From: Patescibacteria group bacterium
GTDB lineage: Bacteria; Patescibacteriota; JABMPQ01
Assembly (NCBI GenBank): GCA_041749335.1
Contig: JBGTBM010000007.1
Coordinates: 149,957 to 213,956, forward strand
Length of the DNA stretch: 64,000 nt
Direction: 5' to 3'
Below, piece by piece: positions 3,582-64,000 of this stretch. The first letter of the stretch is position 1, and the number at the start of each line of letters is the position of its first letter. A program made the position numbers and the translations under genes. A model generated the notes under the pieces. It was not told where the DNA came from. It ran no database searches and was given only the letters and a program-made list of their open reading frames with translations.

Positions 3582-4795
3582 GGGCTGAAATGTTTAAAAG
3601 CTTGAAAAGATTGTTTTAGAGTATAGTTTTTAGTAATTAGCCCATATTCTCCCTCTTTGCCAACATGTCCGGTATCTCTTAGGGAATACCAATAAACCCT
3701 CTCAATATTTTGGGAAGCATTAAACAAAGTCATCATATAGGCTAGATTATCAGCCTGTTTTTTTTGTCCAATTGTGAAACTGCTGCAGCCGAACTCGGTA
3801 ATCCAAAGCGGTTTTTTATATTGATTGGAAATTTGTATTATTTCCGCAAGATCTCCGGCCAATTTTTCATAATGGCCGTCCGCCACGCCTTGCTCGCAGT
3901 AATATGCATGGACTCCATAACCATCTATGTAATTTTGCATATTCGCTTTATAAAAGTCTTGGGCATAGTTTGGATCAGGCCAGGTAGTTCCGCCGCTAAT
4001 TACTTTGGCAGCAGGGTCGATGCTTTTAATGGTATTAGAAGTATTTGCTAATAAATTGTAATATTGCTTCCTGGCCCCATTGAAAAAATTTATATCATTA
4101 GGCTCATTCCATACTTCCCAGGCGGATACTTGCCCCTGGTATCTGGTAACGGTTTCTCGAACAAAATTATTCCACTGATCAATGTTGGGAGGATAAAATT
4201 CTTTATTGGCAACATTGTTCGGAGCTTGAGCTGACCATTTCGCGCTATACGCCAAAAGGCCCAGCACTTCTACATCATAGTGCTGATAACTTTGCATAAT
4301 TTCATCGTAGCGGGAATAGTCCATTTTCCCTTTTATTGGCTCAATTAAATTCCAATTAAATTCTTCGCGAACGTATTTAATGTTTGCCTGATAGATCGCA
4401 TCATTTATTAATACATCTCGACAAGGTTCTTCCCGAAATGCCCAGTGCATGTTTGCTCCCAGCTTATTCGGGCTGGAATCGTTACCGGAGGAAAAATATT
4501 TATTTATTAATAAATCATTTCCATTGTCTTCGAAATTTTTAAGCGGAGATTCTTGATAATCACTAGTTGAAATGGGTTGGCTTTCTGGGGAGGTCTCCAA
4601 GGCTTTTATCAAAGTTCCCTCAATATTTTTAGCACCTGAGGATGTATTTATTATTTTTGTTTCATTAACTGCGATATTCTTGTTATTGATCAGATCCAAC
4701 AAGAATTTATTGATAAAAAGCGCAAATAAAATAGTGACAATAATTGCCAAGGAAATGACAAAGGCTTTAATGATTTTTAAAATTGTATCTGCCAT
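3578..4795 (-). CDS. Membrane-anchored glycoside hydrolase, GH5/clan GH-A like
   Basis: An N-terminal TM helix, then 'WEVWNEPN' (acid/base Glu in NEP) and 'WITEFG' (nucleophile Glu), typical of clan GH-A beta-glycanases. Confidence 0.65.
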   Translation of the reverse strand: MADTILKIIKAFVISLAIIVTILFALFINKFLLDLINNKNIAVNETKIINTSSGAKNIEGTLIKALETSPESQPISTSDYQESPLKNFEDNGNDLLINKYFSSGNDSSPNKLGANMHWAFREEPCRDVLINDAIYQANIKYVREEFNWNLIEPIKGKMDYSRYDEIMQSYQHYDVEVLGLLAYSAKWSAQAPNNVANKEFYPPNIDQWNNFVRETVTRYQGQVSAWEVWNEPNDINFFNGARKQYYNLLANTSNTIKSIDPAAKVISGGTTWPDPNYAQDFYKANMQNYIDGYGVHAYYCEQGVADGHYEKLAGDLAEIIQISNQYKKPLWITEFGCSSFTIGQKKQADNLAYMMTLFNASQNIERVYWYSLRDTGHVGKEGEYGLITKNYTLKQSFQAFKHFSP

Positions 4796-4885
4796 CCTAT
4801 TATATTTTTATCTAAATAAAATAATGATATGATTAAATGTAATAACGAAATACTTTAACATAAAAAAATAAAAAAGTCAATAGAT

Positions 4886-6052
4886 ATGGAAAAATACATT
4901 ATTATTCATTACGCGGAAATTGGCCTAAAAGGCAAAAACAGGCCATTTTTTGAAAATAAATTGATTAAGAATATTCGCGCCAAGTTATCGCAGTATAAGA
5001 TTGACTATATTAAGAATATTTTTGGCCGGATTTTGATAAAAATAAATCTTAAAGGCCGAGATATTCAGATAGCCATCAATATCTTAAGCAAGATTTCGGG
5101 AATTAAATATTTTGCCTTTACCCAAATTAGTCCGAAAGAAATAGATAAAGTTTTAGCCAACTCACTCAATTTGCTTAAAAAATTTAAGTTTAACACTTTT
5201 AAAATTTATACTAAGCGAGCTGGCAAGGATTACCCTCTGAATTCCCGGCAAATAAATGAAAAAGTAGGCGAGCACATTTTAGATAATATCAGAGGCATCA
5301 AAGTAAAATTAGATAATCCGGAAGTGACTTTATTTCTCGAGGTGGTAAATCAATATGTTTTTTTGTATTTAGAAAAATTAGGCGGAATTGGCGGTTTGCC
5401 CGTGGGTACGAGCGGTAAAGTATTGAGTTTGATTTCTTCCGGAATAGATTCGCCGGTAGCCAGTTATCGCATGATGAAAAGAGGCGCTTCAGTCTTTTTC
5501 TTGCACTTTCATTCTTATCCTCAGACAAGCCGCGAGTCGATCAATAATGTTAAGGAATTAGTTTTGAAATTAAATCATTATCAAATAAATTCAAAAATAT
5601 ATTTTGTTCCATTTTTAGAATTTCAAAAAGAAGTGGTAGAAAAAGCGAATGCTAGAGATAGAGTAATCCTGTATCGGCGCATGATGATAAGAACCGCTGA
5701 ACTTATCGGTAAAAAAGAAAAAATTAATACTTTGGTAACGGGAGAAAGCCTAGGACAGGTGGCATCTCAGACTCTGGAAAATATGTTAGTAATAGGCGCG
5801 GCATGTGAAAATACACAAGTATTTCGGCCGTTAATATGCTATGATAAAGAAGAAATAATTAAAGAGGCAAAACAGATCGGCACCTATGATATTTCGAGTC
5901 TTGGCGATGAAGATTGTTGTTCGCTTTTTGTTCCCGCGAATCCCAATACAAAATCAAACATAGTCGAGGTGGAAACGCAAGAAAAAAAGCTGGAAATTAA
6001 GCGGCATCTTCGAAGTATGGAAAAAAATTGGGAAATTATCATAATAAATTAA
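4886..6052 (+). CDS. thiI: tRNA 4-thiouridine sulfurtransferase ThiI
   Basis: An N-terminal THUMP-like region and the PP-loop 'SGGIDSPVA' match the ThiI architecture. Confidence 0.75.
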   Translation: MEKYIIIHYAEIGLKGKNRPFFENKLIKNIRAKLSQYKIDYIKNIFGRILIKINLKGRDIQIAINILSKISGIKYFAFTQISPKEIDKVLANSLNLLKKFKFNTFKIYTKRAGKDYPLNSRQINEKVGEHILDNIRGIKVKLDNPEVTLFLEVVNQYVFLYLEKLGGIGGLPVGTSGKVLSLISSGIDSPVASYRMMKRGASVFFLHFHSYPQTSRESINNVKELVLKLNHYQINSKIYFVPFLEFQKEVVEKANARDRVILYRRMMIRTAELIGKKEKINTLVTGESLGQVASQTLENMLVIGAACENTQVFRPLICYDKEEIIKEAKQIGTYDISSLGDEDCCSLFVPANPNTKSNIVEVETQEKKLEIKRHLRSMEKNWEIIIIN

Positions 6053-6491: not shown

Positions 6492-8207
6492 ATGAAAAAC
6501 ATATCAAAGATTCTGCTAGTAATTTCATTATTGTGCATTTTGGTATTTCCCGGTATGAGCCAAGGGAGCACATCTTATGTGGAAAAAATCGATTCCTATG
6601 ATGTTAATATAGAAATTAACAGCGATTCTTCAATTTTGGTAACTGAAAAAATAGAATATGATTTTGGAATGCAGGATCGTCATGGTATTTATCGCTATAT
6701 CCCATACAAATATAAGGCGCGCGGCGGAAACTTTTCTTTAAGATTTTCCGATTTTGACGTTATAGATGAGAAGGGAAACAGATATAAATATGAAACTTCA
6801 AAACAAGGCGATAATATTTATTTAAAGATTGGCGATCCCAATGTTTATATAAGTGGAAAACATATCTATTTAATAAAATATAAAGTTGAGAGAGCGCTTA
6901 ATTATTTTGCGGATTGGGATGAATTATATTGGAATGTTACTGGCACCGAATGGCAAGTTCCGATTGTAAAATCATCGGTTACGGTTGCTTTGCCGCATGA
7001 TATCGCTCAGGGCGACTTAAAAACAAAGTGCTTTACCGGAAGTTTTGGCAGTACTGAAGAAGATTGTACAGTAGATGTTTTATCCCAAGGCCAAATAAAA
7101 TATAGTTCAGATGTTGAATTTAATCCTTATGAAGGCTTTACCATTGTGCTGGGATGGCCTAAACAAATTGTGGCAGCGCCCTCTTGGGGGACAAGGGCAG
7201 CTTGGATTATCGGTGATAATATATCTTTATTTATTGCTCCCTTGGTATTTCTTTTAGTATTTTTATACTGGTATTATCGGGGCAGGGATCCTAAAATCGA
7301 GGGGCCGATTGTGGCGGAATATGAGGCGCCTGAAAATTTATCTCCGATAGAGCTGGGGGCATTAACTAAGGACAAAGTGGTGAATAAATATATTTCCGCT
7401 CAATTAGTGCAGCTGGCAATAAAAGGTTATCTTAAAATAATTCAAACCGGAGAAGGAAAAAAAGATTATAAATTTGTCTATCGTAAAGATTATAATGATT
7501 TGGAAAACGACTATGATAAAAGAATATTGGAATATGTTTTTGATGGCAAGCAAGAGGTGGCGATGGGAGATTTAGAAAATAAGTTCTATCAGCATATTAA
7601 TAAAATAAGTAATCTTATTTATCAGTCTTTAACCGAAAAAAAATATTATGTAAAAAATCCTCAGCGCGCCCGTTTTGGCACAATGTTTGTTGTAGGCGTC
7701 TTGCTGTTATTTATGTCTTTTATATTAGGCTCGGTATTTGTTAGTTTTACGCTGGGCGCTTCAATTTTTATTTCGGCTATCATTATGATAGTTTTTTCCC
7801 AGTTTATGTCTAAAAAAACCAAAGAGGGAGCAGAGGCATTGAGAAAAATATTTGGTTTCAAGAAATTTCTTGAGGTTACCGAAGAGGAACGTTTAAAATT
7901 TCACAATCCTCCCGAGATGGTGCCGGAAGTTTTTGAAAAATTTCTGCCCTACGCCATGATTTTGGGAGTAGAAAACAAATGGGCGAAAAACTTTGAAAAA
8001 ATATATACTCAAAAGCCCGATTGGTATGAAGGCCATCAAGTTTCTGCTTGGAGTTCTGTTTATTTGGCTAATTCTTTATCGACATTTAGCAGCTATTCTT
8101 CTTCGGTTATGGCATCTGCTCCATCCAGCAGCGCTTCTGGCGGTTCCGGTTTTTCCGGTGGCGGTTCAGGCGGTGGCGGAGGAGGGGGCGGTGGAGGTTC
8201 TTGGTAA
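6492..8207 (+). CDS. DUF2207 domain membrane protein with a C-terminal Gly/Ser-rich tail
   Basis: A signal/TM segment, a large extracytoplasmic domain, TM helices, then 'SSSASGGSGFSGGGSGGGGGGGGGGSW'. The poly-Gly end is characteristic of DUF2207 proteins. Confidence 0.6.
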   Translation: MKNISKILLVISLLCILVFPGMSQGSTSYVEKIDSYDVNIEINSDSSILVTEKIEYDFGMQDRHGIYRYIPYKYKARGGNFSLRFSDFDVIDEKGNRYKYETSKQGDNIYLKIGDPNVYISGKHIYLIKYKVERALNYFADWDELYWNVTGTEWQVPIVKSSVTVALPHDIAQGDLKTKCFTGSFGSTEEDCTVDVLSQGQIKYSSDVEFNPYEGFTIVLGWPKQIVAAPSWGTRAAWIIGDNISLFIAPLVFLLVFLYWYYRGRDPKIEGPIVAEYEAPENLSPIELGALTKDKVVNKYISAQLVQLAIKGYLKIIQTGEGKKDYKFVYRKDYNDLENDYDKRILEYVFDGKQEVAMGDLENKFYQHINKISNLIYQSLTEKKYYVKNPQRARFGTMFVVGVLLLFMSFILGSVFVSFTLGASIFISAIIMIVFSQFMSKKTKEGAEALRKIFGFKKFLEVTEEERLKFHNPPEMVPEVFEKFLPYAMILGVENKWAKNFEKIYTQKPDWYEGHQVSAWSSVYLANSLSTFSSYSSSVMASAPSSSASGGSGFSGGGSGGGGGGGGGGSW

Positions 8208-56700: not shown

Positions 56701-57535
56701 AGCCCGAGGAATTAAAAAACCGGCGATAATTGCGGAAATTAATGGAATGGCGCATGTAGCGGAAGAAAAAGAAAATAAAATCATTCGAATATATTCTACC
56801 AATATCAAAAAAGATGAATATAAAATCGCAGGTTTAAAGCCGGCGGTTAAAGACGGTGATAAAGTGGAAAAGAATCAAGTAATTGCTAAGGATAAGAAAG
56901 GTAAAAGCATAAAAGCCAAAAATGCCGGATTTGTCAAAGTAAAAAACGACTTATTGTCGGTAATTCATGAAGGAGGAGAAGAAAAAGAATATATCTTACC
57001 AGCCAACGCGGTTATCTGGATTAAAAAGGGAGACTTGGTGACGAAGGGACAACAATTAACTGAAGGATCAATTGATATCCAGAGCTTGTTTAAGCTAGGC
57101 GGGCCAATTGCGGTGCAAAAATATATATTAAGAGAAGCTCAATTTATTTATTCTTCACAGGGGCAAGATGTTAATGACAAACATATCGAAATTATTGTCA
57201 AACAGATGCTTTCCAGGGTAAAAATCTTATCTGCCGGCAATAGCGAGTTGTTAGCCGGTTCCATTGAGGATAAAATTAAATTTGAAGATACCAGAGACAG
57301 GCTAAAAAAAGAAGGAAAAAGACCACCGGAAGCCTCTTCGCTGCTATTGGGCATTACCAAAGCTTCGTTGACCACTCCCAGCTTTTTATCAGCCGCTTCG
57401 TTCCAGGAAACATCTAAAGTATTGATTGAAGCTTCCATTATCGGAAAGACGGATAATCTTCGTGGATTAAAGGAAAATGTAATAATCGGCAAGCTTATTC
57501 CGAGCGGAACCGGATATAAAGCGACGGAAAAGTAA
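53732..57535 (+). CDS. rpoC: DNA-directed RNA polymerase subunit beta'
   Basis: Zn-finger '[23 protein letters not shown]', catalytic '[12 protein letters not shown]', and trigger loop/bridge helix blocks. Confidence 0.95.
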
Positions 57536-57557
57536 AATAAATTTGAATAAATCAAAA

Positions 57558-57580
57558 AGGTCCGATGCGCGGACTTTTTT
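57558..57580. terminator. Bidirectional intrinsic terminator after rpoC
   Basis: Stem AGGTCCG/CGGACTT with loop ATGCG, an A5 run upstream and a T6 run downstream. Confidence 0.6.
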
Positions 57581-57602
57581 GATTGGCAGATTGACTTTTA
57601 TA

Positions 57603-57980
57603 TTATTTACCTTTTGGTTTTTTTAGGCCAATCAAGAAAAGAATACCGGCTATCAGGAAGGGGAAAGTTAAAATAAAAATAGATAGCGCTTCATTTAAAC
57701 CAATGGTTAACCAAGTAAAAATTATTAAAATTAAACCGGAAATAATAATCGTTAGGCTTCCCGACCTGGCATTTTTCCAAGATATAATTACTCCGGTAAT
57801 ATTCAATACCATTAGCGTAGTGAGCAAAAATTTTGCCAGGCTTAAATCTTTTTCTGCGGATATTGCTTGCACCAGCAATGTTGCTCCCCAAAAAATCGCA
57901 GCTAAAGCGCCGATTATTTTCCCCAGCAAGTTAAAAATATTTTGCGTTAAAGCTGTTTTTTTTGTAAAATTATTTGGCAT
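57603..57980 (-). CDS. Hypothetical small membrane protein
   Basis: Four predicted TM helices. Preferred over the overlapping + strand ORF because of its hydropathy periodicity and the downstream terminator. Confidence 0.45.
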   Translation of the reverse strand: MPNNFTKKTALTQNIFNLLGKIIGALAAIFWGATLLVQAISAEKDLSLAKFLLTTLMVLNITGVIISWKNARSGSLTIIISGLILIIFTWLTIGLNEALSIFILTFPFLIAGILFLIGLKKPKGK

Positions 57981-58025
57981 AATTTAAATATTATAATAGT
58001 GTAATTTTACCGAATTTTATTTATC

Positions 58026-58052
58026 TTGACAATTGATAGCCGAGCTGATAAT
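58026..58052 (+). promoter_or_regulatory. Sigma70-like promoter (-35 TTGACA, about 15 nt spacer, -10 GATAAT)
   Basis: Hexamers upstream of the ribosome-binding site 'CAAGGAGAAGAAAATG' at 58100. Confidence 0.4.
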
Positions 58053-58099
58053 TTCACTGTAATTTGCACCTTATTGGATCAGATTCCAAGGAGAAGAAA

Positions 58100-58363
58100 A
58101 TGTTAGGATCTTTGAAAAAATATTTGGTTTTAAGATTTGGATTTGTTTTTATGGCAATTCATTATGGGGAAATTCGGGAAGTTGATTTATTTGTTAAGGC
58201 CCTGCGTGGTGTTTCCGGAGTGGACTTGATTTATTATCAGGAATACGCTGATCAAGTGATGGTTAAAATATTGGGAGATACCAATCGGGTAGAGCGGGCG
58301 ATGCGGGAATTGATTCCCAGATTTCGATTAGACATTTCTCGAAATGGCATTAAGGTTCACTGA
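58100..58363 (+). CDS. Hypothetical small protein (possibly a ferredoxin-like alpha/beta fold)
   Basis: An ATG with a good Shine-Dalgarno sequence (AAGGAG), 87 aa. Overlaps the next gene by ATGA, suggesting translational coupling. Confidence 0.45.
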   Translation: MLGSLKKYLVLRFGFVFMAIHYGEIREVDLFVKALRGVSGVDLIYYQEYADQVMVKILGDTNRVERAMRELIPRFRLDISRNGIKVH

Positions 58364-58770
58364 TGGACTTAGCCAGACTGAAATTAATTAATATTCCGGC
58401 CGATTGGATTCCCGGGCGCGACGCGTTTGTGAGATTAAGGATAAATCCGAAACAATCTGATTTCTCTGATGAAATATTGCCATATGCTGAAATTGCCGCT
58501 TCAATATTTGTTTGGCTAGCTAAGAAGAATAACGGATTTAAGCCGATTCCGTATCAGAATTTGTCTGAAATAAAATCGCCCTTAGTGCGTATTACCAGTC
58601 CGGAAGGCGATACTTTTGAAGCAACGCGCTTAGCGGCAGGAATAAAAATATTAATAGAGCTGGGCTGGGTGGAAAATGATGAAGAAAATAGGTTGTTTAT
58701 AGTCGATCAAGGCATTTTGAAAAATATTATTTTTTGTCACCAGGTTTTATTTTCATCTCCGTGCGCTTAA
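58363..58770 (+). CDS. Hypothetical protein
   Basis: 135 aa with no recognisable motifs. Its 3' end and terminator are duplicated 0.8 kb downstream. Confidence 0.45.
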   Translation: MDLARLKLINIPADWIPGRDAFVRLRINPKQSDFSDEILPYAEIAASIFVWLAKKNNGFKPIPYQNLSEIKSPLVRITSPEGDTFEATRLAAGIKILIELGWVENDEENRLFIVDQGILKNIIFCHQVLFSSPCA

Positions 58771-58862
58771 AAAATAAATCTCTTTTTAGGCGAAGATATT
58801 TTACTAAATTCCCTCGAAGTGAATTATGTCACATATCGAGGGTTTTTTAATTAATTTAAATT
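58746..58862 (+). repeat. Direct repeat copy 1 (gene 3' end + terminator + AT-rich tail)
   Basis: About 80-85% identical to 59587..59694, ending in an identical 'CGAGGG(A)TTTTTAATTAATTTAAATTTT'. Confidence 0.7.
58811..58848 (+). terminator. Rho-independent terminator (CCCTCG...CGAGGG + T6)
   Basis: A 6 bp GC-rich stem with an 18 nt loop that itself has GTGA/TCAC pairing, followed by TTTTTT. Confidence 0.6.
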
Positions 58863-58981
58863 TTTTATATTAAAGAGAAAAAGGAGAGAAGGAGTATTTT
58901 ATTGATAAACTTGACAAAAATTATAAATATGATTAAATGAATAGTTCTCAACATATGAGCCGTGAAGGCTAAGGAGGAACA

Positions 58982-59431
58982 ATGTATAAGAACTGGAAGG
59001 CAATTTGTGAAGTTAAGGATAATCATATGATGTGGGCGCTGGCGCTCCTTGATCTGACATCCGATCTTGGTCGAAGGTTCGTGGAGCAACTTCCGGAGTT
59101 TTTCTCACAGGAAGAGACTGCCGGACCTTATCCGCTGTCACTTATGCGGGAAGCAGCGCAGGAAAATGGAAGAAAACAGGGCACTGACAATGGGGCAAAT
59201 TACATTGTCTCTCACGATGGCGTACCCGGCCACATTCCTGTTAAGATGTTTGACAAGTTTGGCAAGAATGTTGCTTCTCTCAACGGACCAAAGCTGCCTG
59301 ACGAGATCAGTCCGGATGCTCGCGCGGGTGAAACAGTTACCTGGGAGGGTAAACAGTTCGTTGTATTGGAAAACAACGATAGCTGTGAAGAGCTAGCGAT
59401 TGCGCCGGCAGAACTGATCTTTGTTGATTGA
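58982..59431 (+). CDS. Hypothetical protein encoded by a GC-enriched cassette
   Basis: A strong ribosome-binding site (AAGGAGG, 6 nt spacer) and a TTGACA -35-like hexamer upstream. GC is around 48% against a roughly 33% background. No recognisable family. Confidence 0.55.
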   Translation: MYKNWKAICEVKDNHMMWALALLDLTSDLGRRFVEQLPEFFSQEETAGPYPLSLMREAAQENGRKQGTDNGANYIVSHDGVPGHIPVKMFDKFGKNVASLNGPKLPDEISPDARAGETVTWEGKQFVVLENNDSCEELAIAPAELIFVD

Positions 59432-59586
59432 TCTTTAATCCAATTAAATTTATTAGTATTCCGCATTGGAGAGTTAATCTAATGCGGTTTTTTATACAAA
59501 AAAATATTCAAAACAATTTTAGTTATTATTCGGGAAGAATGTGAAGTAAAATTGAATCTGAACAAATAGAATTAGATAATTGCAGC

Positions 59587-59694
59587 CCTATTATTTTTAT
59601 CTCTGTGCGTTTAAAAACAATGTCTTTTTACGTGAAGAGATTTTACTAAATTCCCTCGTGCACATCGAGGGATTTTTAATTAATTTAAATTTTA
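59587..59694 (+). repeat. Direct repeat copy 2 (relic gene 3' end + terminator + AT-rich tail)
   Basis: Contains the relic reading frame '...LLFLSLCV*' (compare copy 1 '...VLFSSPCA*') plus the same terminator arms. Confidence 0.7.
59653..59677 (+). terminator. Rho-independent terminator (CCCTCG-TGCACAT-CGAGGG + ATTTTT)
   Basis: A 6 bp stem with a 7 nt loop and a T-run. This is a paralog of the 58811 terminator. Confidence 0.6.
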
Positions 59695-59753
59695 TAGACC
59701 AGCAAAGAAAATTTATAATATTGCGACAATCTGAAACATGATAAAGTCGGATT

Positions 59754-60164
59754 TTATTCAATTTCTTTTACTAATTTTTTAATTAATAATATTATTTGAT
59801 TTCTTACTTTGCGATGTAAATTCAATTCTCCTTTATCCGGATCTTCAATATCCCAAAAAGATAATTTATTCGACTTTTTTAAAAAATCCGGCCAACCTTC
59901 CTTTTCTCCAATTACAATTACTTTTTCTGCTTCATCTATCATTTGTTTTGTTAGTTTTTTTGAGAATTTGTCATTTATATCATAGCCAATTTCAGCCATT
60001 ACGGAGGCAACAAATTTTGTTTTAGATAATTTTTGGCCTTCCCATAATTTTGGGGGATTGAGCCCGGCACTGATAGCTTTATGTTTTTTGGTGATTGAAT
60101 TAAAAATTGCTTCCGCCATCTGGCTTCGTCCAACGCTTGCTCGGCAAATAAAAAGTACTGTCAT
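59754..60164 (-). CDS. Low-molecular-weight phosphotyrosine phosphatase / ArsC-type arsenate reductase family protein
   Basis: P-loop 'CRASVGRS' (CX5R-S) at the N-terminus and a conserved Asp-Pro 'DIEDPDKG' region. Confidence 0.7.
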   Translation of the reverse strand: MTVLFICRASVGRSQMAEAIFNSITKKHKAISAGLNPPKLWEGQKLSKTKFVASVMAEIGYDINDKFSKKLTKQMIDEAEKVIVIGEKEGWPDFLKKSNKLSFWDIEDPDKGELNLHRKVRNQIILLIKKLVKEIE

Positions 60165-60189
60165 ATTTTTAAAATAAAAGTTTATTGAT

Positions 60190-60741
60190 TTATTTCGATG
60201 TGCTTGCGCGCTGAAACAACAGCGCCGATATTACAAAGAGCATGGCAAAACACGCATTTAGAACAAACACCCGAAACACGCTTGGCGACCAGGAGGTAGT
60301 AGAAGGCGGCCAGATAATGAGTGCTATCAGGGGAACCGACATTTGCGCCACAGCCGTCGTAAATAATGTTATTGCCATTCCGCGCGGCTTAAAGCGTGCC
60401 ATCAAGGAGCCGATTAATCCGACCGCGAATACTATTGTATACATCAGGTTGGCGGGTTGATCTTCGTTCCCGATGATGCCGACAGCGCCATTCACGAAAA
60501 AAAGGAAGAAAGCTCCCATAAGTCCAATGCTAAAAGCGGCTCGGTACACGGATTTCTCCACCCTTCTTGCAATTAGCTCATACGCAAAGGCAAGGCTTGA
60601 CAGGACAACGCCCATTAAGATGAAATCGAACAAGCTCCAATTCACTTCTTTAGTAAATTGCATTGCGATAAGTGGTATCATCAATACGAGCGCGATGGCG
60701 GCAGCCCACACAATTATTCTTTTTGCAATATTTTGCATCAA
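60190..60741 (-). CDS. Hypothetical membrane protein (5-6 TM)
   Basis: 183 aa, hydrophobic, comparatively GC-rich. Probably co-transcribed with the LMW-PTP/ArsC-like gene. Confidence 0.45.
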   Translation of the reverse strand: MMQNIAKRIIVWAAAIALVLMIPLIAMQFTKEVNWSLFDFILMGVVLSSLAFAYELIARRVEKSVYRAAFSIGLMGAFFLFFVNGAVGIIGNEDQPANLMYTIVFAVGLIGSLMARFKPRGMAITLFTTAVAQMSVPLIALIIWPPSTTSWSPSVFRVFVLNACFAMLFVISALLFQRASTSK

Positions 60742-60808
60742 GATTTAAATTAATTATATAAACATCCAATAGAATAATTTTCTCTTTTACAAATAAAAAT
60801 TATTTCCG

Positions 60809-61897
60809 TCATGAATTAGGATCCGCTTTCTTAATAATTTTTACGGTGCCATTTTTTGTATTTACTTCGACTACGTCATCATTTTTAATTGCTTTTGTGG
60901 CAATTTTAGTAGCGATTAATGTTGGTTTTTTTAATTCTCGCGAGATTATGGCGGCGTGGCAAGTTAAACCTCCTTCATCAGTCACTATCGCGGCAGCTTT
61001 TTTCATTGCCGGTAGGAAATTTGGAGCGGTCATTGCCGTAACTAAGATTCCATCCTTCGGAAAATTATTTATATGGTGACTAAGGAAGATTAAAAAAGCT
61101 TTGCCCCGAACTGTTTTTCCAATATATGCTGATTGTCCTTTAAAAAAATTTATTCCTTTTTCAAAAAAATCAAAAGTATAATTTGCATCTTGCAGTAATT
61201 TTGGAAAAGACTTATTAACATATAATTTGCCATTGATAATAACATAGCCCTTCTGCCTTGCTTTTAATTTATCTATATTTATTGAATATTTTTCGGCAAA
61301 TAATTTATTAAATTCGGATAAAGTTAAAAAGCGGGCGAGCAAAGGATCCGCATTTAGATATCTTAGCTTTTCAGCTACTATTTTTCTAATAAATAAATCC
61401 ATTGATTCAAAAATTCCTTCAATTTTTATCCTAAGATTAAAAAAGTCATTGATGATTCTTTCACTGTCGCTACCGCGCAATTTTTTAAAGTCATCGGACC
61501 ATGGTCCGGGTAAAAAATTTGCCAGCATATAACCCGGGTACATTTCAGACCATAAATGAAAAATTTCATCTATCAGGTCGGTATAATCATTTTCTGTTTT
61601 TTTGTTAAGTAAAAATTTTATCCGTTTTACCGCAGCAATGGTTATTCGAATACGGTTTTGAGAAAACAGCGGGTGATTCGTTGGCAAATTAATTACATGA
61701 TTTTTAATTTTTTCGACTTCATCGTGTATGCGATACGATTCAATTACTTTGCCATTAAAATGAATAATTTGGTCAGAAATAGTAATTCCCCAAATTTTCT
61801 TTATATCCTTGAGAAGCAGTTGGTCCCGCCAAAAAATACAAGTAAATAAAGAAATATCTCTAGTGAAGATTAAATCCAATTTTTTTAATTTTGTCAT
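60809..61897 (-). CDS. PEP-utilizing enzyme mobile (phosphohistidine swivel) domain protein with an uncharacterised N-terminal domain
   Basis: The C-terminal 'GILVTAMTAPNFLPAMKKAAAIVTDEGGLTCHAAIISRELKKPTLI' is a PEP-utilizers motif with the phospho-His. The N-terminal roughly 270 aa has no recognisable motifs. Confidence 0.6.
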   Translation of the reverse strand: MTKLKKLDLIFTRDISLFTCIFWRDQLLLKDIKKIWGITISDQIIHFNGKVIESYRIHDEVEKIKNHVINLPTNHPLFSQNRIRITIAAVKRIKFLLNKKTENDYTDLIDEIFHLWSEMYPGYMLANFLPGPWSDDFKKLRGSDSERIINDFFNLRIKIEGIFESMDLFIRKIVAEKLRYLNADPLLARFLTLSEFNKLFAEKYSINIDKLKARQKGYVIINGKLYVNKSFPKLLQDANYTFDFFEKGINFFKGQSAYIGKTVRGKAFLIFLSHHINNFPKDGILVTAMTAPNFLPAMKKAAAIVTDEGGLTCHAAIISRELKKPTLIATKIATKAIKNDDVVEVNTKNGTVKIIKKADPNS

Positions 61898-62006
61898 ATA
61901 TGTTATTTATAATATTTTGATAAAGATGCGGGAAATTTTACATTTAATATACAATTACCAATCAAATTTTTCTACAAAATTCACTAAAAAGTGAAAAAAA
62001 ATTATT

Positions 62007-62567
62007 TTAGTTTATATTTGTCAAATGATTCCTGTCTTGTTCTGATGTCCATTTGAAAGGATTATTTTGTACGTATTTACGAATATTAAATAATGATTTT
62101 TCATTGCGAATAATATGGTCATAAAAAGATTTCTGCCAGACAAATTCATCATTATTTTTTTCACGAAAATATTTAGTAACGCCTATTTTGAAACCGCGGA
62201 TAATTGATGATAGCGATTTTGATAATTTTGTTTGCCATGGAAGGGAACAAAAATTTTTGTTCCCTTCATCATTATTTTTAATTATCACGATTCCGTGAAT
62301 ATGGTTTGGCATAATTATAAATTCATCCAATATCACGTTTGGGAAATGATCCGGAATTTCCCGCCAGCATTTTTTTGTGATTTTCCCATATTCATTCAAC
62401 GTCAATTCTCCGTTTTTTATTTCACCGAAAAATTCCTGCCGATTTTTGGTACAAATGGTGACAAAATAATACCCATTTTGGGAATAATCATATCCTTTCA
62501 ACCTGTTTAATTTGCGATCGGGCAAATTTTGCCCTCTTTTACCCGATTTCTTTATTATATTCTTCAA
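62007..62567 (-). mobile_element. IS200/IS605-family Y1 (HUH) transposase, RAYT/TnpA_REP-like
   Basis: 'YFVTICTKNRQ' (like the IS200 'Y..VW.PKYR' block), the HUH motif 'MPNHIHGIVII', and the catalytic Tyr context 'WQKSFYDHIIRNE' typical of REP-associated tyrosine transposases. Confidence 0.7.
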
Positions 62568-62693
62568 TTTTTTTATTTCTTTTATGTAAAAATACTATAT
62601 AATTATTTTCCATTTATTCCAATTTATTATGGTATTTTATATTACAAGAAAAACCAAAAATTGGGATTTTTGCAAGCCGGTGGCGGTTAAAGA

Positions 62694-63110
62694 TTATCTT
62701 TTTTCACCACATTTCAAACAAGAATCTCTATGTACACAAAGCAATTCTCCACATTTTGGGCATTTCCATATTTTTTGTTCGGATTTAACAAATTTCTTAA
62801 TTCCAAATTTATTAATAAATTCTAGATTTTCAAGCATACTCATTCCGTATTTGGTTCGATACCTCTTATCGAGATTTTTTAATCTTGTGCAGGGGAATTT
62901 TTTACACTTATCCGAACAAAATTTCCATTTATTTTTCTTTAGGATTTGGCAACTTCTTATGATGCATTTTCTACCATAACTTGATCGGTATGCATCCATT
63001 TCTCTACAGCCGAGACATTTATTTTTCTCTCTAAGATAACCCAAGCAAATTCCACAATTCATTCCGCAAGGGGCAACTAGTTTGGGATTAATTGTAGATT
63101 TTTTGTTCAT
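62694..63110 (-). CDS. Cys-rich zinc-ribbon-like protein (DUF3795-like)
   Basis: 138 aa with about 8 CxxC pairs ('CGMNCGIC', 'CLGC', 'CKKFPC', 'CPKCGELLC', 'CLKCG'). Confidence 0.5.
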   Translation of the reverse strand: MNKKSTINPKLVAPCGMNCGICLGYLREKNKCLGCREMDAYRSSYGRKCIIRSCQILKKNKWKFCSDKCKKFPCTRLKNLDKRYRTKYGMSMLENLEFINKFGIKKFVKSEQKIWKCPKCGELLCVHRDSCLKCGEKR

Positions 63111-63185
63111 ATAAAAAAAGAAAGTCCAATTATTTAAATTTATTTAATATCGTGGTCTGGATAATATTGAATATAACATTTGCGT

Positions 63186-63503
63186 ATATCTGATGTTTTA
63201 CGGAGTGAAGGCTAGGCAAAGTTTCGTAAAAATTTGCCTGTCCTGAGCATGTCGAAGGGAGCATAGCCGTTTAGCCGTTGTTATGCGAAGTCGCGCAGCG
63301 ACTATCGGCTAGCCGCCGCCATTAGGCAAAAGAGCGAAGCGATTTTGCCTAACGTTCCAGCGTATGCGATGTTTTTGCGACCAACGGGAGCAAAAATATG
63401 GGAGAGGGGCGAGCCGAGCCCCGAACCGCATACGCTGTGTTATACGCCCCGACGACCGAAGGGAGGAGAGCGCAGCGGGGCGCGACTGAAAGGAGCGAGT
63501 TCA
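63186..63503. ncRNA. Candidate structured non-coding RNA (class not assigned), GC about 60% in an AT-rich background
   Basis: No credible ORF. Nested helices: 213-220/233-240; 272-277/306-311 enclosing 289-294/298-303; a 10 bp hairpin 322-331/343-352; an 11 bp long-range helix 359-369/427-437 enclosing hairpins 372-378/390-396 and 406-410/418-422; and 445-451/476-482. Confidence 0.45.
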
Positions 63504-63627
63504 AAAAATATTTTTCATTCAATTTCATTTTGACAGGCTTTTTATTCAATAATCATAAATTTGTTTTTTTGTTTTGGATTTTGGGCAGAGGGGTTAGGGG
63601 TGAATGCCCAAAATCCAAAACTCCTTA

Positions 63628-64000
63628 TTATTCAATTCTGTATCCTATTCGAACAATTGGTGTATATCCAGCATTTGAGCATTGTCGTTGCCATTCGGCG
63701 AGTTTCATCATAAAAATCAGTGATTTGATTTCTGATATTTGTGTAATTTCCGTTTGCCGATCAAGAATAAGCCAAAGGCAGATGTTTTTGGGTTTTATGT
63801 CTTGACTATCAATTTGGATCGTAGACGTTTGGCTCTGTAAAATTTTTATCGTGGCAACGGCTTGATCTATCACATATCCTAATTTTTGTGGCGTGCCAAT
63901 TTTTACAAAATAGGCCACGTCATCTTTGTATAAATCCAATTTCTCTATTTTGTACTGTTGTAGCGACTCAATTTGGCGATCTAAATTTTTATAGCCATCT
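63628..64000 (-). CDS. Hypothetical protein, N-terminally truncated by the window end (about 124 C-terminal aa visible)
   Basis: The reading frame is open from the window edge to the TAA stop at 63628. No recognisable family; it contains 'LYKDDVAYF'. Confidence 0.4.
   Translation of the reverse strand, partial: DGYKNLDRQIESLQQYKIEKLDLYKDDVAYFVKIGTPQKLGYVIDQAVATIKILQSQTSTIQIDSQDIKPKNICLWLILDRQTEITQISEIKSLIFMMKLAEWQRQCSNAGYTPIVRIGYRIE

Follow-up and report, generated by a model that had tools for sequence, protein, structure and literature searches.

Described systems closest to the locus

Integron attC sites preserve a structure, comprising an R box, a spacer and an L box, while their sequence varies, and their core consensus RYYYAAC...GTTRRRY is accompanied by variable bases past G|TT. 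Integron arrays carry one promoterless-looking open reading frame (ORF) per cassette, all co-oriented. The box that opens each site is complementary to the initial bases of that site's cassette, folding is better on the strand that serves as template for the cassette ORFs, and the recombinase gene is oriented divergently from the cassettes and has a simple site next to it. Clusters of attC sites without an integrase are referred to as CALIN. The site family described here shares all of these attC and array traits, and its member in a 64-kb stretch of Patescibacteria DNA (64,000 nucleotides, hereafter the window) resembles CALIN in lacking an integrase. Set against the usual description of attC (an imperfect hairpin, 57-141 nt long, that has R and L boxes, a central spacer left unpaired, and extrahelical bases), the window copy and its family present an R box, a spacer and a covarying L box, in units that are composite and with a spacer that is asymmetric.

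The family departs from integrons in several respects. Its units are often composite, with two sites and a linker hairpin spanning 250-350 nt, and the spacer is asymmetric (4-5 nt versus 1-2 nt). Its complementary cassette ends extend over at least 12-16 nt with a fixed G.T wobble, and its junctions hold conserved unpaired motifs, which are unusual for attC and typical of functional RNAs. The sole associated recombinase found lacks the IntI-specific domain, and the hosts are Patescibacteria (the Candidate Phyla Radiation, CPR), for which our literature search on integrons and recombinase cassettes returned no description.

A second group of related systems exploits the Xer/dif machinery and includes XerS-difSL modules, the folded single-stranded attP of CTX phage, and pdif modules, whose sites are plain 28-bp duplexes. 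As in these systems, the family combines gene modules bounded by recombinase sites, a single Xer-type recombinase gene with a palindromic core site immediately upstream, and folded single-stranded DNA that could serve as substrate, as for CTX-phage attP. To our knowledge, the known IMEX elements are phages, plasmids or islands, and not arrays of single-ORF cassettes with structure-conserved sites.

Organization of the window end

The features identified at the right end of the window are as follows.

62007-62567, minus strand: RAYT-like HUH/Y1 gene, 186 aa from a TTG start (PF01797); a neighbour of the site unit, with no indication that it belongs to it
62694-63110, minus strand: Cys-rich DUF3795-like gene, 138 aa, 15 Cys (PF12675, 22.2 bits); candidate cassette-pool gene
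63171-63212, plus strand: orphan 5′ half of a module-C-type site, with R'' ATATAAC (63171-63177), spacer ATTT and L'' GCGTATATCTG, then ATG-TTTT
63210-63327, plus strand: domain-1-type site whose own R'' box and 5′ outer-stem strand are missing; it holds the hairpin 63214-63239, and its alignment starts at model position 15 of 261
63321-63353, plus strand: linker hairpin B2, with R' ATTAGGC, AAAA, an 11-nt loop, TTTT and R'' GCCTAAC; identical with the second AGGCAAA..TTTGCCT hairpin
63347-63445, plus strand: complete module-C site, with R'' GCCTAAC (63347-63353), spacer GTTC, L'' CAGCGTATGCG (63358-63368), a three-way junction with conserved ATATGGGAGAGG, L' CGCATACGCTG (63427-63437), T, and R' GTTATAC (63439-63445)
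63446-63570, plus strand: tail after R', with a GC-rich hairpin (CGCCCCG..CGGGGCG) and then an AT-rich spacer
63571-63630, plus strand: perfect 17-bp hairpin with a conserved G-rich loop GAGGGGTTAGGGGTGAA, then ACTCCTTAT (z=-7)
63628-64000, minus strand: truncated ORF, recognized by translation, the 3′ end of a gene leaving the window

The segment at 63171-63500, beside the RAYT-like and Cys-rich genes, is a GC-rich, strongly structured block, with a GC content of 52-61% at about 63195-63500 versus ~35% for the window; it folds better than shuffled sequences on both strands (z = -3.6 and -3.9, one per strand). We assign a probability of roughly 70% to the reading that this block is a solitary, partly decayed composite site-specific recombination site of the integron attC type. 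Its family was found through a hairpin pattern search and not through sequence similarity; blastn and single-sequence nhmmer with the block against the first loci gave no match. An nhmmer unit profile built from eight metagenomic copies, with the window copy left out, matched 63210-63445 at E=1e-28 (93.8 bits, model positions 15-256 of 261), which places the window block within the family. A looser version of the hairpin pattern, run on viral sequences, returned mostly chance matches in coding sequence, and blastn of phage GenBank sequences with the block and with a Wolfebacteria unit gave no matches.

The last site of the cluster (63347-63445) is intact. It scores 84.3 bits on the plus strand with covariance model R1, versus 9.1 bits on the minus strand, and its predicted DNA fold (-24.5 kcal/mol, z=-4.7) recovers the R box, the L box and the junction. 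The first site lacks its 5′ strand: the domain-1 outer stem is perfect in 9 of 10 relatives, with 12-20 bp of differing sequence, and in the window no partner for 63307-63327 was found within 500 nt with up to 5 mismatches allowed. In front of it, the orphan half-site matches unit positions 155-211 (nhmmer, E=8e-4), the stretch 63171-63286 reaches 17.2 bits with model R1 (E=0.045), and the matching L' strand is absent. Past the intact site, the tail is devoid of the GATGT/GAAGT motif that usually follows R' in relatives. The G-loop hairpin downstream recurs, with covarying stems, in loci L119, L127, L165, L186 (3 copies) and L189-192, and in the window its ACTCCTTAT overlaps the stop codon of the truncated gene. 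A small peptide across this hairpin was considered and rejected, as the ORF differs in length among copies and the stems show covariation.

The window holds this one site cluster, with no array of co-oriented cassettes. Searches with the pattern, the profile and the covariance model, and a search for repeats, detected no second cluster within the 64 kb, no tyrosine recombinase gene was present, and neither flank had a complementary cassette end (the reverse complement of 63439-63457 is GGTCGTCGGGGCGTATAAC). Direct repeats at 58.8 and 59.6 kb, considered as extra sites, were unsupported by the profile and the covariance model. Because only the last site is intact, an orphan half-site stands in front and the 64 kb contain no recombinase, we favour reading the locus as a remnant, similar to a CALIN or a lone attC, located downstream of rpoC on the margin of an accessory stretch. 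In cassette terms, the truncated ORF, whose truncation the earlier note had correctly recognized, is the ORF followed by the site; it has no match in Pfam, NCBIfam, PHROG or PADLOC.

Related sites in other genomes

In other genomes, a family unit of 250-350 nt carries integron-type core sites (RYYYAAC...GTTRRRY) at its ends and consists of two folded sites and a joining hairpin, while single sites measure 86-175 nt. The RYYYAAC/GTTRRRY boundaries hold in all 49 distinct elements extracted. In array copies, conservation runs from xxxTAAC to GTTAxxx with variable triplets outside (e.g., L170), and module shuffling falls exactly at the GTT/AAC boxes. The B2 hairpin with conserved flanks was found in 83 metagenome stretches and in one phage-like contig, and a phage-like contig also carries one complete unit.

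Spaced 0.3-1.3 kb apart, units or single sites alternate with unrelated ORFs of one orientation, and arrays are present in related loci L170, L156, L123, L090 and L192. Locus L170 contains 8 copies in 12 kb, with one ORF per spacer on a single strand, encoding unrelated products (TetR, CAAX protease, alkylation repair, radical SAM, AAA/Abi, DUF6273 and BspA-LRR); L156 contains 3 copies, and the Patescibacteria genome locus L090 contains 5 sites spaced 0.3-0.5 kb apart. The most copy-rich arrays derive from one metagenome, on contigs without taxonomic label and with no recombinase in the fetched DNA.

The ends of the cassettes obey a simple rule, whereby the sequence following GTTA at one end recurs, as its reverse complement, ahead of TAAC at the other end. 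Across 17 cassettes, 7.1 of 9 positions match between the ends and the triplet is identical in 71%, versus 4.7 of 9 positions and 18% for random end pairs. No such complementarity links the two flanks of one unit (4.6 of 9 positions, triplet 12.5%). One mismatch recurs, a G.T wobble on the plus strand; in L090, cassette ends match at 13-17 of 19 positions. The related arrays follow the integron rule under which a site's first box complements the start of the cassette it belongs to.

Module C shows compensatory changes at 18 of 30 predicted pairs (11 members) and invariant G.U pairs on the plus strand. Folding favours the plus strand over the minus strand in 21 of 22 copies of module C and in 6 of 6 copies of domain 1, and the cassette ORFs sit opposite the better-folding strand; since family members are related to one another, the covariation and strand-asymmetry counts do not represent independent events. 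The junctions contain strongly conserved unpaired motifs (CTGAYG, TTTGGGTGGAGG), and a further single-stranded motif, UUUGGGUGGAGG, is conserved.

These properties also bear on an unlikely alternative, already anticipated by the "structured RNA" of the earlier note, in which the block would be all or part of a non-coding RNA gene of a new family, transcribed from the plus strand antisense to the neighbouring ORFs and folding into a three-way junction, with TAAC/GTTA as helix ends. The structure itself was upheld (z = -3.6 and -3.9 for the block, reaching -4.7), and strong covariation, plus-strand G.U pairs, better plus-strand folding in 27 of 28 elements, unpaired motifs such as UUUGGGUGGAGG, and a downstream hairpin with a moderately U-rich tail (63571-63633) would all suit an RNA. 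However, an RNA is less likely than a recombination site because conservation stops exactly at TAAC/GTTA, cassette ends are complementary and units adjoin a recombinase gene. An RNA would leave unexplained the contrast between complementary cassette ends and non-complementary unit flanks, the shuffling of modules exactly at the GTT/AAC boxes, the up to 8 copies between unrelated ORFs, and the constant adjacency to a recombinase gene and a dif/attI-like palindrome. Furthermore, the window copy lacks one strand of the closing helix of its first domain, no promoter-like site lies upstream on the plus strand, and Rfam gave no match for the block at E<=1 (57000-64000), with only two tRNAs in the whole window; ARAGORN likewise gave no match. 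A hammerhead-like core (CTGATG...GAAC) was dismissed for its wrong motif arrangement and the lack of an Rfam match.

The linked Xer-like recombinase

Four independent Patescibacteria contexts of a conserved 270-aa Xer-like tyrosine recombinase were examined (L168; L189-192; L193; L187/188), and in 4 of 4 the units or sites directly precede the recombinase gene on its own strand. About 100 nt separate the unit end from that gene, a dif/attI-like palindrome lies alongside, and the cassette ORFs are divergent from the gene. In each context the conserved palindrome TTATATRCGAAGTGTTTTCGYATA, preceded by a RYYYAAC box, stands ~100 nt ahead of the start codon; it has 8-9-bp arms and a 5-7-nt centre, and the 5′ half of module C resembles its left arm and centre. 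Considering that the unit separates swappable cassettes and elsewhere adjoins a recombinase gene, we interpret the family as an integron-like system and not as transposase repeats.

The recombinase has more than 5500 relatives and is widespread in Patescibacteria, with best matches 70-88% identical, and it sits among housekeeping genes such as fmt. It scores 198.9 bits on TIGR02249, below the cutoff of 265, and integron-integrase models match it in two pieces: TIGR02249 covers residues 6-180, and PRK15417 positions 251-327 cover residues 195-271. The intervening segment of ~70 model positions, corresponding to the IntI-specific extra domain, is therefore missing. The associated recombinase and the site beside it may simply represent the housekeeping Xer/dif pair of these bacteria.

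The same data invite a quite improbable reading in which the units would be scars of elements integrated at chromosomal dif by the housekeeping Xer, IMEX-like and comparable to CTX phage, with the window copy as a stray scar. The Xer-like recombinase without an IntI insertion, its extreme conservation, wide occurrence and housekeeping neighbours, the classic palindrome adjoining it, the resemblance of module C to that palindrome and the complete unit in a phage-like contig are all compatible with such scars. In contrast, each cassette is a single small ORF, the ORFs are unrelated to one another, share one orientation and carry no phage or plasmid functions, and sites or arrays also occur far from any recombinase gene (L090, L119, L186 and the window). 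This scenario overlaps with the integron-like interpretation, the main difference being whether the platform is dedicated or not.

The neighbouring RAYT-like and Cys-rich genes

The RAYT-like ORF bears the motifs NHIHGIV and QKSFYDHIIR, as first described, and reaches 30.2 bits on PF01797 (Y1_Tnp), above the gathering threshold of 23, and 69.5 bits on the NCBIfam model REP_Tyr_transpos (NF047646), under its cutoff of 80. In an alignment of 22 relatives, H89, H91 and W144 are invariant and Y149, Q145 and D150 are conserved in at least 90%. At least 7982 relatives were retrieved at E<=1e-5, predominantly from Patescibacteria; a sequence search of the PDB gave no match, and the same gene is called as 172 aa in a Logan contig. 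As the earlier note had observed, the gene is the sole copy in the window and has no flanking REP pairs, its flanks being AT-rich and palindrome-free.

The window shares with REP/BIME-RAYT systems its clustered, GC-rich extragenic palindromes near a RAYT-type HUH/Y1 gene, and with IS200/IS605 elements a Y1 HUH protein and hairpins as possible substrates. Unlike IS200/IS605, its hairpins lie on one side only with another gene in between, and tnpB and matching left and right ends are lacking. That the block consists of REP/BIME-type palindromes recognized and spread by the neighbouring transposase is very improbable. The intact HUH and Tyr motifs 0.6 kb away, the GC-rich, palindromic, extragenic and elsewhere multi-copy nature of the element, and a Y1_Tnp gene near a site in L187 would agree with it. 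Nevertheless, the L187 protein has no detectable similarity to the window RAYT by tblastn at 1e-4, the sites are absent from 4 other loci with RAYT relatives, and ~80 element-bearing metagenome loci contain no relative of the window RAYT. The AGGCAAA..TTTGCCT hairpins at 63214-63239 and 63324-63350 are, as noted earlier, the only ones nearby, and indeed the only two in 64 kb (0.01 expected by chance). Their suggested role as a REP/REPIN signature found no support: pattern, profile, covariance-model and repeat searches of the 64-kb window yielded no further copy, no dispersed REPs and no inverted REPs flanking the gene. Both hairpins lie inside a 250-350-nt unit, ten times REP length, whose boundaries are of the integron type, and the cassette-end rule and recombinase adjacency suit a tyrosine recombinase, not HUH mobilization. 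The RAYT-like gene thus shows no link to the recombination site and stands as an independent accessory gene, apparently an immobile lone copy without REPs.

The Cys-rich protein contains 15 Cys and 4 CxxC motifs, not the 8 CxxC pairs first reported. The DUF3795 assignment is borderline: the protein scores 22.2 bits on PF12675, just below the gathering threshold of 22.6, yet relatives at 70-76% identity carry the NCBI name DUF3795. Its 2310 relatives (70-87% identity) are distributed across phyla. Module-C sites lie within 2 kb of this gene in 3 of 6 loci (the window, L090 and L088), and it is an independent accessory gene, possibly acquired as a cassette.

Relatives of both genes occupy different, unrelated neighbourhoods in other genomes, so there is no conserved core gene order, in line with the accessory character proposed earlier. 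A search of genome contigs with the RpoC C-terminus for synteny was uninformative, the best among the listed matches being 54% identical. The proposed compositional shift at 58-64 kb applies to local GC-rich patches but is weak at the 1-kb scale (GC 0.30-0.41 versus 0.30-0.43 elsewhere in the window). PHROGs and PADLOC returned nothing for the proteins of the region except one swivel-domain "kinase" PHROG. An accessory-like stretch with the relic of a mobile-DNA system is supported, whereas the four items once grouped as one module (transposase, Cys-rich gene, structured element and truncated gene) do not recur together, and only the Cys-rich gene is repeatedly near such sites (3 of 6 loci). 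Overall, the earlier observation is partly confirmed and its interpretation partly supported.

Proposed mechanism and implications

Judging from sequence, the plus strand would fold as single-stranded DNA; for the neighbouring minus-strand ORFs it is the template ("bottom") strand. The RYYYAAC box would pair with the GTTRRRY box to form the R box, and past the short asymmetric spacer a 10-11-bp L box would form, closing the three-way junction. A tyrosine recombinase would then exchange strands at G|TT, such that an ORF and its site move as a cassette; in this scheme the reaction chemistry, the choice of strand and the enzyme itself are all putative.

Extending this model, we tentatively propose, as a reading somewhat short of probable, that an undescribed integron-like cassette system exists in Patescibacteria (CPR), in some other uncultured bacteria and in at least one phage. 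Its cassettes would terminate in folded single-stranded DNA sites of conserved structure, often double and with RYYYAAC/GTTRRRY boxes; a highly conserved 270-aa Xer-type recombinase without the IntI domain would insert these cassettes beside a dif/attI-like palindrome, and the window would hold a stray, half-decayed site.

For the window itself the consequence is modest, namely a relic site beside ordinary accessory genes. The units also have practical effects: being GC-rich, they break assemblies (the Logan contig of the window organism stops inside the unit), they give rise to spurious ORF predictions by gene callers, and they could pass for RNA genes. If the proposed system is real, cassette-based gene exchange would extend to the Candidate Phyla Radiation, whose members have tiny genomes and poorly understood transfer routes, and integron-style cassette capture would have evolved, or would persist, on an Xer chassis in these bacteria. 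A recombinase without the hallmark domain of integron integrases would then use attC-like folded sites, which would bear on the origin of integrons from Xer-type recombinases.

Gene content of the region downstream of rpoC

The window has a low GC content (~35%), and its genes rpoB and rpoC, which end at 57535, are followed by the features listed below.

Features downstream of rpoC, in order along the window
First downstream of rpoC: gene for a DUF7670 membrane protein
Next: two ORFs of unknown function, + strand
58982-59431: ORF of 52% GC with a direct repeat on both sides
Next: LMW-phosphatase/ArsC-like gene
Next: gene for a membrane protein
60809-61897: gene for a PEP-utilizers swivel-domain protein
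62007-62567, - strand: RAYT-like gene
62694-63110, - strand: Cys-rich gene
~63171-63500: GC-rich block
63571-63621: perfect 17-bp hairpin
After the hairpin, - strand: gene running past the window end

A 14.5-kb Logan contig from the same organism has a gene order identical to that of the window and terminates at window position 63340, within the GC-rich block. The earlier note drew a contrast in composition between 58-64 kb and the remaining sequence; at the 1-kb scale this contrast is weak. The ORF at 58982-59431 encodes 149 aa at 52% GC in a 35%-GC genome and belongs to a real family of 205 cluster representatives (best 58% identical), with no match to any Pfam, NCBIfam, PHROG or PADLOC model. 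The direct repeat around it (~125 nt; 58745-58868 and 59587-59697, 81% identical) consists of the last ~20 nt of the ORF at 58363-58770 and a terminator-like hairpin, and the arrangement resembles an insertion by which the end of a gene became duplicated. Within the repeat is TTTAGGCGAAGA, recalling the cassette start GTTAnnnGAAGT, and no site model matches at either copy. The product of 60809-61897 (362 aa) is a stand-alone swivel-domain protein, in which the PEP-utilizers mobile domain is found only at the C-terminus (74.6 bits) and the N-terminal 270 aa have no assigned domain.

A composite folded unit in the GC-rich block

The palindrome AGGCAAA..TTTGCCT forms two hairpins in the block and no others in the 64 kb, where 0.01 would be expected by chance. 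These hairpins, ~0.6 kb from the RAYT-like gene, had been put forward as a possible REP signature, a reading that is not supported, the 64-kb window being free of any repeated palindrome family. On the + and - strands alike the block has a better fold than shuffled sequence, and no Rfam family matches it at E<=1. A search pattern built on the second hairpin matched one phage-like viral contig and 83 metagenome stretches, in most of which the sequence flanking the hairpin is conserved on either side. An nhmmer profile of eight low-GC metagenomic units, from which the window was left out, matched the window at 63210-63445 (E=1e-28, model positions 15-256 of 261) and weakly at 63174-63229, a 5' half-site, with no further match anywhere in the 64 kb. 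At 63347-63445 a covariance model of the last module (module C) scored 84 bits for the + strand against 9 bits for the - strand, and at 63171-63286 it scored 17 bits; all remaining window matches had E>=0.46. In the viral contig (IMG/VR, 46 kb; L091), a complete unit (2020-2270; fold z=-5.9) lies between ORFs of a phage-like sequence encoding DNA methyltransferases, and a small ORF with a GTPase-like N-terminus begins just downstream.

The unit follows the plan xxxTAAC - domain 1 - GTTAGGC AAAA-loop-TTTT GCCTAAC - module C - GTTAxxx, after which GATGT or GAAGT usually comes, and domain 1 and module C are each bounded by RYYYAAC...GTTRRRY. Domain 1 spans 78-157 nt and has, in 9 of 10 members, a perfect outer stem of 12-20 bp whose sequence differs in each. 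Module C (86-175 nt) comprises a 4-5-nt spacer, a stem of 10-11 bp and a three-way junction carrying conserved unpaired motifs; compensatory changes are numerous in the stem, and double changes are seen at 18 of the 30 predicted pairs of the module. In Wolfebacteria and Moranbacteria, copies of domain 1 are built internally like module C, so the unit is two related sites in tandem; lone module-C sites exist too, for instance in a Patescibacteria genome (L090). One module-C site in Wolfebacteria CP011209.1 (L192, 5905-6481) contains a 65-aa ORF between its L'' strand (5913) and L' strand (6463); the ORF has a terminator and a promoter-like TTGACA..TATCATAAT of its own, so the variable arm of a site can hold a gene.

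The hairpin at 63571-63630 has a fixed G-rich loop, GAGGGG-N(1-5)-GGGGTGAA, and is followed by ACTCCTTAT, the 3' flank across copies being AC(T/A)CCTTAT. The motif is present in at least five further contigs, where its stems covary (copies at L119 7880-7960, L127 ~975-1050, L165 1340-1420, L189-192 6890-6950 and three in L186), abuts the stop codon of a - strand ORF in every case and lies ~100 nt after a unit in four contigs. Neither strand forms a canonical terminator.

Cassette ends, arrays and strand preference

Conservation ends exactly at TAAC and GTTA, and the three bases beyond vary, as in contig L170 (D3). In arrays, units or sites are spaced 0.3-1.3 kb apart with one ORF between them; these ORFs have unrelated functions and all lie on the strand opposite to the sites. 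The two ends of a cassette are related by a simple rule, the bases after GTTA being the reverse complement of those before TAAC at the other end: across 17 cassettes, matches amount to 7.1 of 9 positions and 71% have an identical triplet, the corresponding figures being 4.7 of 9 and 18% for random pairs and 4.6 of 9 and 12.5% for the two flanks of one unit. Cassette ends match at 13-17 of 19 positions in the five-site array of L090. A recurrent mismatch in cassette ends is a G.T wobble on the + strand. The same rule is obeyed in integrons, where the first box of a site matches the start of its own cassette. The + strand gives the better fold of the two in 21 of 22 copies of module C and in 6 of 6 of domain 1; it is also the template for the cassette ORFs, as the bottom strand is in attC. 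Reshuffled modules occur as well, and their breakpoints fall at the GTT/AAC boxes. An antisense structured RNA is a possible, less likely reading of the folded block and leaves the cassette rule unexplained. These sequence patterns are evidence that the units probably serve as recombination sites for gene cassettes.

An associated tyrosine recombinase

On a short contig (L168), the gene for a 271-aa tyrosine recombinase starts ~100 nt from a unit fragment. The protein matches XerA and "integron integrase" models with scores under their cutoffs, and IntI models match it in two pieces with the middle missing; it therefore lacks the IntI-specific domain, the criterion that defines IntIs (Ghaly et al., PMC9668308). 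The family has >5500 members, the best matches being 70-88% identical across Moran-, Pace- and Wolfebacteria. In every further recombinase locus fetched, sites lie just upstream on the same strand (three in L192, two in locus L193 and one in the Pacebacteria genome L187). An RYYYAAC box followed by the palindrome TTATATRCGAAGTGTTTTCGYATA occurs ~100 nt before the recombinase start codon in four of four independent contexts, and the cassette ORFs are divergent from the recombinase gene. This layout is that of an integron, or else of a Xer-dif module beside which elements have integrated.

In its inferred working the system most resembles an integron, with which it shares core boxes, folded strand-specific sites, the cassette rule, arrays and a divergent recombinase gene, and its solitary sites have a counterpart in CALINs. 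It differs from integrons in that its recombinase has no IntI domain, its sites, compared with attC, are composite with conserved junction motifs, and the window holds neither array nor integrase; a Xer/dif-based (IMEX-like) reading is a close alternative. Full-text searches of incomplete coverage turned up no account of integrons, or of cassettes linked to a recombinase, in Patescibacteria/CPR, and an earlier description is possible.

The RAYT-like and Cys-rich genes

The RAYT-like ORF scores above the Pfam Y1_Tnp threshold (30.2 bits, threshold 23), and the HUH histidines and the tyrosine are conserved among 22 relatives; it falls under the NCBIfam cutoff for REP-associated transposases (69.5 vs 80), and no solved structure was found by sequence match. 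Its relatives number at least 7982, mostly in Patescibacteria (best 79% identical), and three that were examined neighbour UvrD, a DinG-like helicase and a racemase. The Cys-rich protein is indeed cysteine-rich (15 Cys), with four CxxC motifs rather than the eight pairs claimed, and scores marginally under the DUF3795 threshold. It has 2310 relatives, including 70-87% identical copies in Patescibacteria, Bacteroidales and Marinimicrobia contigs. The neighbourhoods of these relatives vary in the loci examined and none adjoins a RAYT, which argues against the proposal that the two genes form one module.

Module-C sites lie within 2 kb in three of six examined loci of the Cys-rich family, which suggests that this gene belongs to the cassette-associated gene pool. 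The window copy, the next ORF on the - strand after the truncated gene, has no detected site of its own, and no comparable link to sites was found for the RAYT in the loci compared. In L187, a Y1_Tnp gene for a 223-aa product (4547-5218) has a module-C site at 0.7 kb and the recombinase gene at 2.8 kb; the product shows no similarity to the window RAYT detectable by tblastn at 1e-4. In L090 (GCA_042568575.1), the five-site array with small ORFs (461-2542; GNAT, 87 aa, 77 aa, 135 aa) is ~1.5 kb upstream of a Cys-rich DUF3795 relative, with a DUF7670 gene close by, and in contig L088 a site (2511-2615) has a PPDK-like PEP-utilizers gene on one side and a Cys-rich relative on the other; the combination of DUF7670, PEP-utilizers and Cys-rich genes with a site is found in the window too.

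The copy in the window

Only module C (63347-63445) is complete in the window, where it folds as DNA into the expected shape (-24.5 kcal/mol, z=-4.7). From domain 1 the R'' box and the 5' strand of the outer stem have been lost, an orphan 5' half-site (63171-63212) lies ahead of it, and the usual GATGT is missing after R'. The first of the two hairpins is the 5' strand of an inner helix of domain 1 plus a local hairpin; the second is the linker hairpin, in which the R' box of one site pairs with the R'' box of its neighbour. As sites elsewhere come after cassette ORFs, so this one comes after a truncated - strand gene; the window contains no complementary partner for either unit flank and the 64 kb no tyrosine recombinase gene. 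The Logan contig breaks in the linker hairpin (its position 1 is window 63340), and many recombinase relatives, like many relatives of the Cys-rich gene, are on contigs of 1-3 kb. Assemblies appear to break at these units, a hint that the genome holds further copies.

The sequence observations of the earlier note were largely correct, and its view of an accessory stretch with a mobile-DNA relic stands; its mechanism does not, as neither hairpin is a REP and an RNA gene is an improbable reading of the block. The copy in the window is a relic, and the interest lies in the family that it reveals.
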